From Escherichia coli (GTDB taxonomy: Bacteria; Pseudomonadota; Gammaproteobacteria; Enterobacterales; Enterobacteriaceae): a stretch of 773 nt of DNA. The stretch lies in assembly GCF_003334405.1 (NCBI RefSeq), contig NZ_QOWM01000052.1. One strand, written 5' to 3'. Of this stretch, positions 1-773 are shown piece after piece (position 1 is the stretch's first letter; every line of letters starts with the position of its first letter). The position numbers were made by a program, and so were the translations under genes. The notes beneath the pieces are model-generated. The model was given only the letters and a program-made list of their open reading frames with translations, ran no database searches and was not told the origin of the DNA.

Positions 1-773
1 GCCAGCGGCAGGCCGCGATGGTCGCAGTGGTACAGGTGGATTTTTCGCGCCGGCGTGTACACCGGGTCCATCTGGTTTTGCATCTGCTCCACGGTCAGGC
101 CGCACGATGCCAGCCAGCGGCGGCTTTCCTCACTCACCCGGTCAGCCAGGATTTCACTTTCCAGCCGGTCGAGCATCTGCACCAGCACCGGCGGGAACAC
201 CACACTGCCACCGTCTTCGCCGCCGGACTGCTGAAGGGTATCCGCCAGGCTGCGGCGCTGCGTTTTCGCCAGCTCACCGGTGGCGGTTTCAACCCTGATG
301 AGTGGCGTGAAGCTCCCCGGCTGATAAATCGTCTGGATGCGGGTTCTGTCGTTCTGTATCGTGGTCAGGCGGTCGCCGTCCCAGCCGTACCAGGTCACTT
401 GCGGTTTCCGTGACAGCGACATCCAGCCCGTCAGGTCCCGTTCACGCCGCCACACCCGTTTTGCCACCCTGCGGCCCAGCGGGTCGTAAAGATAGCGACT
501 TTCGACCAGCGGCTCTTCATATTGTGTCCGCGTGTAGTGCACCAGCCGGTGCTGACTGTCGTAATGGTACCGGTGAGTCCGCTCATCATCCGTGCGGATA
601 ACCCCTTCCGGGATGAGGTCGGTTTTCTCTGTCAGCCTGCCGTGACGGTCATACCGGTAAAGATAGTGCGCGTCACGGGCGATACGGTTATCCGGCCACA
701 TGCTGAGGGTGCTGTCCGGGTGCAGCTCCGGGTCGGGCAGGCGGTTACCTGCCGGGTCTGTGGCATACGGGAT
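1..773 (-). CDS. rhs: Rhs-family (YD-repeat) polymorphic toxin core protein, internal fragment; partial at both ends (N-terminal side beyond position 773, C-terminal side beyond position 1)
   Basis: Seen in sequence: the reverse-complement frame starting at position 773 (codon 1 = 773..771) runs 257 codons to position 3 with no stop, plus a 2-nt partial codon at 2..1. Hand translation: [258 protein letters not shown]. It contains canonical YD repeats ([42 protein letters not shown]) at roughly 25-38 residue spacing. Established knowledge, recalled not searched: this matches the C-terminal third of enterobacterial Rhs core proteins (E. coli RhsA/B/C-like). GC is about 63% by hand count, as expected for Rhs cores. 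The gene symbol is generic because core paralogs are near-identical and the distinguishing tip is outside the window. Confidence 0.93.

Follow-up and report, generated by a model that had tools for sequence, protein, structure and literature searches.

The window, by which we mean the whole stretch of 773 nucleotides analysed here, is a piece of the conserved part of an E. coli Rhs toxin gene that codes for the shell. This Rhs element core gene, well known and multi-copy, is read on the minus strand; it enters the window at the last base and leaves it at the first, so we call these two ends the gene-5' and the gene-3' end, respectively. The features found in the window are collected in Table 1, together with three plus-strand open reading frames that were rejected as genes.

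Table 1. Features of the 773-nucleotide window, in window coordinates
Feature	Position	Strand	Remarks
Rhs element core protein, partial frame cut at both ends	3..773	-	257 codons, no stops, NF041261 match
YD-repeat beta-hairpin part of the Rhs shell	279..773	-	Translation residues 1-165; TIGR01643 and solved-core alignments
Lineage-specific linker or insert of about 79 residues, from the last shell repeats to the C-terminal RHS domain	42..278	-	Translation residues 166-244
Start of the Pfam 'RHS protein' domain PF03527, first 13 residues	3..41	-	Remainder off the window
Gene-5' branch point	773..773		First base common to full-length cores and the 5'-truncated ybfO-type orphan
Gene-3' branch point	1..1		Last base ahead of a copy-specific variant cluster
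Antisense shadow ORF, 131 aa, rejected as gene	18..413	+	Codon-for-codon register opposite the rhs frame
63-aa ORFs, rejected as genes	107-298 and 410-601	+	Without family match

All six frames of the window were translated. Read from base 773 to base 3, the minus-strand frame holds no stop in its 257 codons, while the remaining five frames hold 1, 6, 6, 12 and 13 stops. For DNA of this base composition one would expect about 7.3 stops in 257 codons, and the chance that a frame of this length stays open is about 6e-4 per frame. The GC content at the three codon positions of the minus-strand frame is 0.66, 0.46 and 0.77. Compared with K-12 rhsD, 109 of 170 differences are third-position changes in this frame, as expected if purifying selection acts on the protein. 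An earlier note on this DNA had described a minus-strand frame open across all 257 codons and an ORF track that reported plus-strand ORFs only. Both statements were confirmed. A stop codon or a frameshift in the minus-strand frame was looked for and is excluded, and at a minimum length of 60 aa the track consists of plus-strand ORFs of 131, 63 and 63 aa. The listing takes in only ORFs that are closed inside the window and leaves out those running off either end, and this is why the rhs frame is absent from it. For scanning there is a practical lesson in this, namely that short windows which are open from end to end escape ORF lists requiring stops within the window.

The family of the protein was determined with curated profiles. 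The 257-aa translation matches the NCBIfam model NF041261, 'RHS element core protein', with 557.4 bits (E=7.2e-167), in one colinear stretch placing residues 1-257 on profile positions 913-1169 of 1261. The curated cut-off of this model is 2000 bits for a whole protein, a score for which a fragment of 257 residues is too short. The full-length gene of E. coli H8, holding the same stretch without any amino acid difference, scores 2647 bits with the same model. Within the window the NCBIfam model for the YD repeat, TIGR01643 (YD_repeat_2x), matches residues 61-83 with 25.9 bits against a cut-off of 15.8.

Together with alignments to solved Rhs cores (below), these matches bear out the proposal that the window is a piece of an Rhs/YD-repeat core; an absence of Rhs-core similarity, which was also looked for, is excluded. 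The two models that the earlier note had named for checking the assignment did not deliver it. Pfam RHS_repeat (PF05593) stayed below threshold on the 257-aa translation with E=0.05 and 0.72, the weak matches covering residues 38-52 and 66-83, and TIGR03696 gave no match in the window translation. The latter is explained by the position of the domain, which lies wholly downstream: in the H8 protein it occupies residues 1170-1247, whereas the window corresponds to residues 899-1155. As PF03527 is also below threshold on this translation (E=0.016), Pfam gives sub-threshold matches only. Pfam alone would therefore not confirm an Rhs protein; the NCBIfam equivalog model did.

Three parts can be distinguished along the translation. 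In the shell part, residues 24-164 align with residues 863-983 of Tse5 (8cp6_B, E=8.8e-14), and residues 17-171 align with the Rhs core of Salmonella bongori. The linker is not covered by any Pfam, NCBIfam-repeat or PDB alignment. It is kept, with substitutions, in rhsD and rhsE, and in Tse5 the corresponding gap spans about 33 residues (983 to 1016). Residues 245-257, finally, match positions 1-13 of the 38 positions of PF03527; in the H8 homologue the complete domain is found with E=3.6e-16. An autocleavage motif ending in ITQDPIGL follows about 68 codons past the gene-3' end of the window in every copy compared. The toxin tip and the immunity gene are positioned beyond the same end, further out than this motif.

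The window therefore encodes the last YD-repeat strands of the shell, a non-repeat linker and the first residues of the C-terminal RHS domain. In the solved Rhs proteins a closed beta-shell holds the toxin inside until delivery, and aspartyl autoproteolysis takes place at a PxxxxDPxGL motif (PMC8765631). By homology with these proteins, the shell to which the window contributes would enclose a variable C-terminal toxin, and the toxin would be released by aspartyl autoproteolysis at the PxxxxDPxGL motif, which lies outside the window. We infer both the shell function and the autocleavage of the window's protein by analogy with these proteins.

The plus-strand ORFs were considered as genes in their own right, with the open minus-strand frame as an incidental feature. 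They have start and stop codons within the window, and the plus-strand frame starting at base 3 has a single stop in 257 codons. None of the three ORFs (131, 63 and 63 aa) has an NCBIfam match at E<=1, however, and the long plus-strand frame runs antisense to the rhs codons in exact register. Its openness follows from rhs codon use, since the rhs frame has 77% GC at third positions and is nearly without the codons TTA, CTA and TCA (one occurrence, TCA at codon 121). Moreover, the substitutions relative to rhsD pile up at the third positions of the minus-strand frame, and it is this frame that matches a curated family (NF041261, E=7e-167). That the plus-strand ORFs are real genes has practically no probability; they are ruled out as genes and read as antisense shadows. 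An Rfam match to the trypanosomatid H/ACA snoRNA TB11Cs5H2 at window positions 176-239 (minus strand) was also rejected. It scores 19.3 bits (E=0.18), where the gathering score is 47, and is ascribed to chance.

A nucleotide search was carried out against 5426 complete E. coli genomes. The segment is present in 3885 of them, at 17,528 places, nearly all chromosomal, with a median of 5 and a maximum of 10 places per genome. The features annotated under these matches are named RHS element core protein or rhsA, rhsB or rhsC. The best DNA identity is 99.9% (1 mismatch), and no exact nucleotide copy of the window occurs among the 17,528 places. Within K-12 the identity is 99.35% to rhsA, 99.22% to rhsB, 98.45% to rhsC and 99.1% to the ybfO orphan, and 78.0% and 78.3% to rhsD and rhsE; all alignments with K-12 rhs genes are free of gaps. 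Counted as mismatches, the distance is 1 to the gene at the rhsA locus of H8, 5 to K-12 rhsA, 6 to rhsB, 7 to ybfO and 12 to rhsC.

An identity of about 98-99% to rhsA/B/C versus about 78% to rhsD/E places the window, as judged from its sequence, in the RhsA/B/C core subfamily of E. coli (or Shigella). This subfamily is 'clade I' of Jackson et al. 2009 (PMC2935791). Assignment to a single rhs locus is ruled out, because the window is nearly equidistant from K-12 rhsA, rhsB and ybfO; its variants form a mosaic across the H8 rhsA-locus gene, rhsA, rhsB, ybfO and rhsC. The statement that the real gene lies on the minus strand thus holds for the Rhs coding frame. It does not hold for a single identifiable locus, as the segment is multi-copy (median 5 per genome) and looks collapsed. 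High-identity matches to Rhs proteins of Enterobacteriaceae had also been expected; the identity is indeed high, and it is with E. coli specifically and not merely with the family.

The best-matching copy was used as a guide to the surroundings of the window. In E. coli H8 the window equals residues 899-1155 of an Rhs protein of 1377 aa, with no amino acid difference and the one nucleotide mismatch, and the gene is located between yibF and yibA (the rhsA locus). Besides the C-terminal TIGR03696 domain, this protein has a significant DUF6531 match near its N-terminus and a tip identified as Ntox34 (E=2.9e-43). An array of orphan and immunity-like genes follows. The suggestion that the window is part of a toxin/immunity locus whose toxin is not visible is therefore a fair one.

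The array (positions 10461-13907 of the H8 locus, L001) contains yibA, with a HEAT repeat; a first rhs fragment, truncated at its N-terminus; yibG, with a Sel1 repeat; a second rhs fragment, interrupted by a stop; and an Imm57 immunity gene with a frameshift. Strings of this kind, made up of displaced tips and immunity genes, are typical. Of the two orphan fragments, the first overlaps only the last 207 bases of the window, with 96.6% identity.

No significant PAAR domain was found in the full-length Rhs protein of H8, and no vgrG annotation lies within 9 kb of its gene. As far as this homologue can be taken as a guide, neither the neighbouring genes nor the N-terminus support type VI delivery of the subfamily, and the remark in the earlier note on frequent delivery of Rhs proteins by type VI secretion is best kept as one on the family in general. 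At residues 2-20 of the same protein (L001 6307-6366), ahead of DUF6531, the last 19 positions of the PAAR motif can be aligned with E=0.24. This weak similarity may be what is left of a PAAR domain since lost, or it may have arisen by chance.

At each of its two ends the window stops exactly where the rhs copies branch. At the gene-5' end, full-length cores read ...GATATCCGC|ATCCCGTATGCC, where the bar marks the window end and the core continues as ATCCCG. The K-12 ybfO orphan reads ...GGCATTGAT|ATCCCGTATGCC, with the same ATCCCG after the junction. The junction between ybfB and the orphan was found in 2664 of the 5426 complete E. coli genomes. At the gene-3' end, the copies differ at the first base outside the window: K-12 rhsB, ybfO and H8 have G there, K-12 rhsA and rhsC have C. 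The 55 nt past this end contain 10 variable sites (18 per 100 nt); inside the window the density is 3.1 per 100 nt. Other K-12 orphans were tried for the gene-5' boundary and rejected: the yibJ region has only about the final 207 bases of the window in common with it, and the ylbH region practically nothing. Judged by these alignments, among the K-12 orphans only ybfO explains the boundary.

K-12 ybfO is an orphan rhs core fragment with a tip, situated downstream of rhsC-ybfB and annotated as a pseudogene. In our data its core similarity starts 45 bases past the ybfB stop, with an abrupt switch from AT-rich to GC-rich sequence. From the first core-similar base, through DPIGL and a distinct tip, it has an open frame of about 500 codons (L004 7149-8651).

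The exact 257-aa product was looked up in metagenome assemblies. It is found on six contigs from six independent ENA assemblies, which were made with SPAdes and MEGAHIT at k=119 and k=141. Each of these contigs is 773 bases long (one is 772), with identical start base and frame. Relative to the window each has 1-5 changes, all of them synonymous, which fall at sites that are also variable among K-12 rhsA/B/C and H8. In gene orientation the synonymous variable sites are 195, 198, 321, 405, 414, 480 and 681.

When several copies have a stretch in common, a de Bruijn-graph assembler outputs the maximal common stretch as a separate contig. The segment is multi-copy, both its ends lie at branch points and the same contig recurs in independent assemblies. 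From this we infer that the window is most likely a whole collapsed-repeat contig. In full, our reading is that the window is an internal, 3'-proximal piece of an RhsA/B/C-subfamily core on the minus strand and most probably a collapsed-repeat contig from short reads, to which we assign a probability of about 0.88. Several near-identical rhs copies would have been merged during short-read assembly in the de Bruijn graph, leaving the window as a contig of its own. The contig would start where a ybfO-type orphan cassette begins to resemble the full-length genes, and it would stop where the copies split into several haplotypes beside their different tips. The window then probably stands for copies in both the intact gene and the orphan cassette. 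In a collapsed repeat, several copies may be blended into one consensus sequence, and the genomic context is lost. The lack of an exact genome match may be explained in the same way, the sequence being a path through the variants of the paralogues; it may be either such a consensus path or a rare real allele.

Two other origins were weighed against a collapsed repeat. The window could be an arbitrary cut from one intact rhs gene, for instance the one at the rhsA locus beside yibF and yibA, with ends that meet the branch points by chance. In favour of this is that the best match, with 1 mismatch and no amino acid change, is an intact gene of 1377 aa at precisely this locus in H8. An arbitrary cut is nevertheless improbable, as the gene-5' end falls on the very base of the ybfO-type junction and the gene-3' end meets the first multi-allelic site. 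It would also leave the contigs of six independent assemblies, all with the same start and 773 bases in length (one 772), as a coincidence, and the near-equal distances to K-12 rhsA, rhsB and ybfO (5, 6 and 7 mismatches) allow no locus to be assigned.

Still less probable, indeed very unlikely, is that the window comes from a 5'-truncated ybfO-type orphan only, a silent remnant that lost its promoter when a C-terminal end was displaced. The gene-5' end is the exact onset of core similarity in K-12 ybfO, which is 99.1% identical to the window and stays in frame across a DPIGL motif and a tip of its own, and the orphan junction occurs in 2664 of 5426 complete genomes. With an orphan as the only source, however, the assembler would have run on upstream through the AT-rich spacer, which is unique, and into ybfB. 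For a contig to end at the ybfO junction, one or more further copies must exist whose upstream sequence differs. The window also has fewer mismatches to full-length copies (1 for H8, 5 for K-12 rhsA) than to K-12 ybfO (7). Since the window stops at the ybfO boundary, the type of its source copy, full-length or orphan, is not readable from it.

Knowledge of the E. coli Rhs cores goes back to the 1980s, and it is established that they serve as shells of polymorphic toxins. The finding as such is already known and biologically there is nothing new in it. The tract of identity between the copies, too, belongs to known biology. Dissociated tips bear core fragments of variable length, and displacement of tips by homologous recombination in the core has been proposed (Jackson et al., PMC2935791). 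Orphan rhs-CT/rhsI modules were described by Poole et al. (PMC3150448). By analogy with such systems, the tract covered by the window would be a substrate of the type used in the classic rhs rearrangements and in the switching of tips between main gene and orphan, and a role of the tract in rhs recombination is suggested on this ground.

Two more specific possibilities seem to us rather unlikely when taken together: that the allele in the window arose by gene conversion between rhs copies, and not as an assembly consensus, or lies in a preferred tract for tip swaps, or that the linker is a structurally unsolved subdomain of the enterobacterial Rhs shell. If the former were true, the recurrent 773-base block, bounded by a junction that is common to about half of the complete E. 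coli genomes (2664 of 5426), would mark a preferred tract for swapping Rhs toxin tips. Even if true, a reading as gene-conversion product, recombination tract or new linker would be of modest importance.

The window may finally be compared with known Rhs systems. The core genes rhsA, rhsB and rhsC of K-12 are 98.4-99.35% identical to it over all 773 bases, with 1-5 amino acid differences in 257, and have it at the same position of the core (NF041261 913-1169). The window is identical to none of them and combines variants of different paralogues. The second core subfamily, K-12 rhsD and rhsE, is colinear along the window without gaps at about 81% amino acid identity; the nucleotide identity of 78% puts the window outside it. 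In K-12 ybfO the core similarity begins at exactly the first base of the window in gene orientation, and upstream there is an AT-rich spacer where the full-length genes have core sequence.

Solved structures are available for type VI Rhs effectors, namely Tse5 of P. aeruginosa (8cp6), the Salmonella bongori core (8qjb/8qjd) and RhsA of P. protegens (PMC8765631). The shell part of the window, residues 17-171, aligns with the solved Rhs effectors with E-values from 9e-14 to 5e-8, and by analogy the general mechanism of a beta-shell, autocleavage and an encapsulated toxin is expected to be common to them and the window's protein. The window is, however, distant from them in sequence, and its linker between shell and RHS domain is about 45 residues longer. 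The best full-length homologue in E. coli also differs from the solved type VI effectors in being without a significant PAAR domain or a vgrG neighbour.

The closest parallel for a pair of main gene and orphan is found in Salmonella Typhimurium. Here rhs-main, a full-length gene, and rhs-CT-orphan, a 5'-truncated orphan downstream of it, share a near-identical core tract. Recombination within this 522-bp homology joins the orphan toxin to the full-length gene and leads to its expression (Koskiniemi et al. 2014, PMC3967940). The Salmonella pair and the E. coli loci are not orthologous. The Salmonella tract measures 522 bp at 95% identity, and the window represents the equivalent, longer tract of E. 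coli, with 773 bp covered at 99.1% identity to ybfO.
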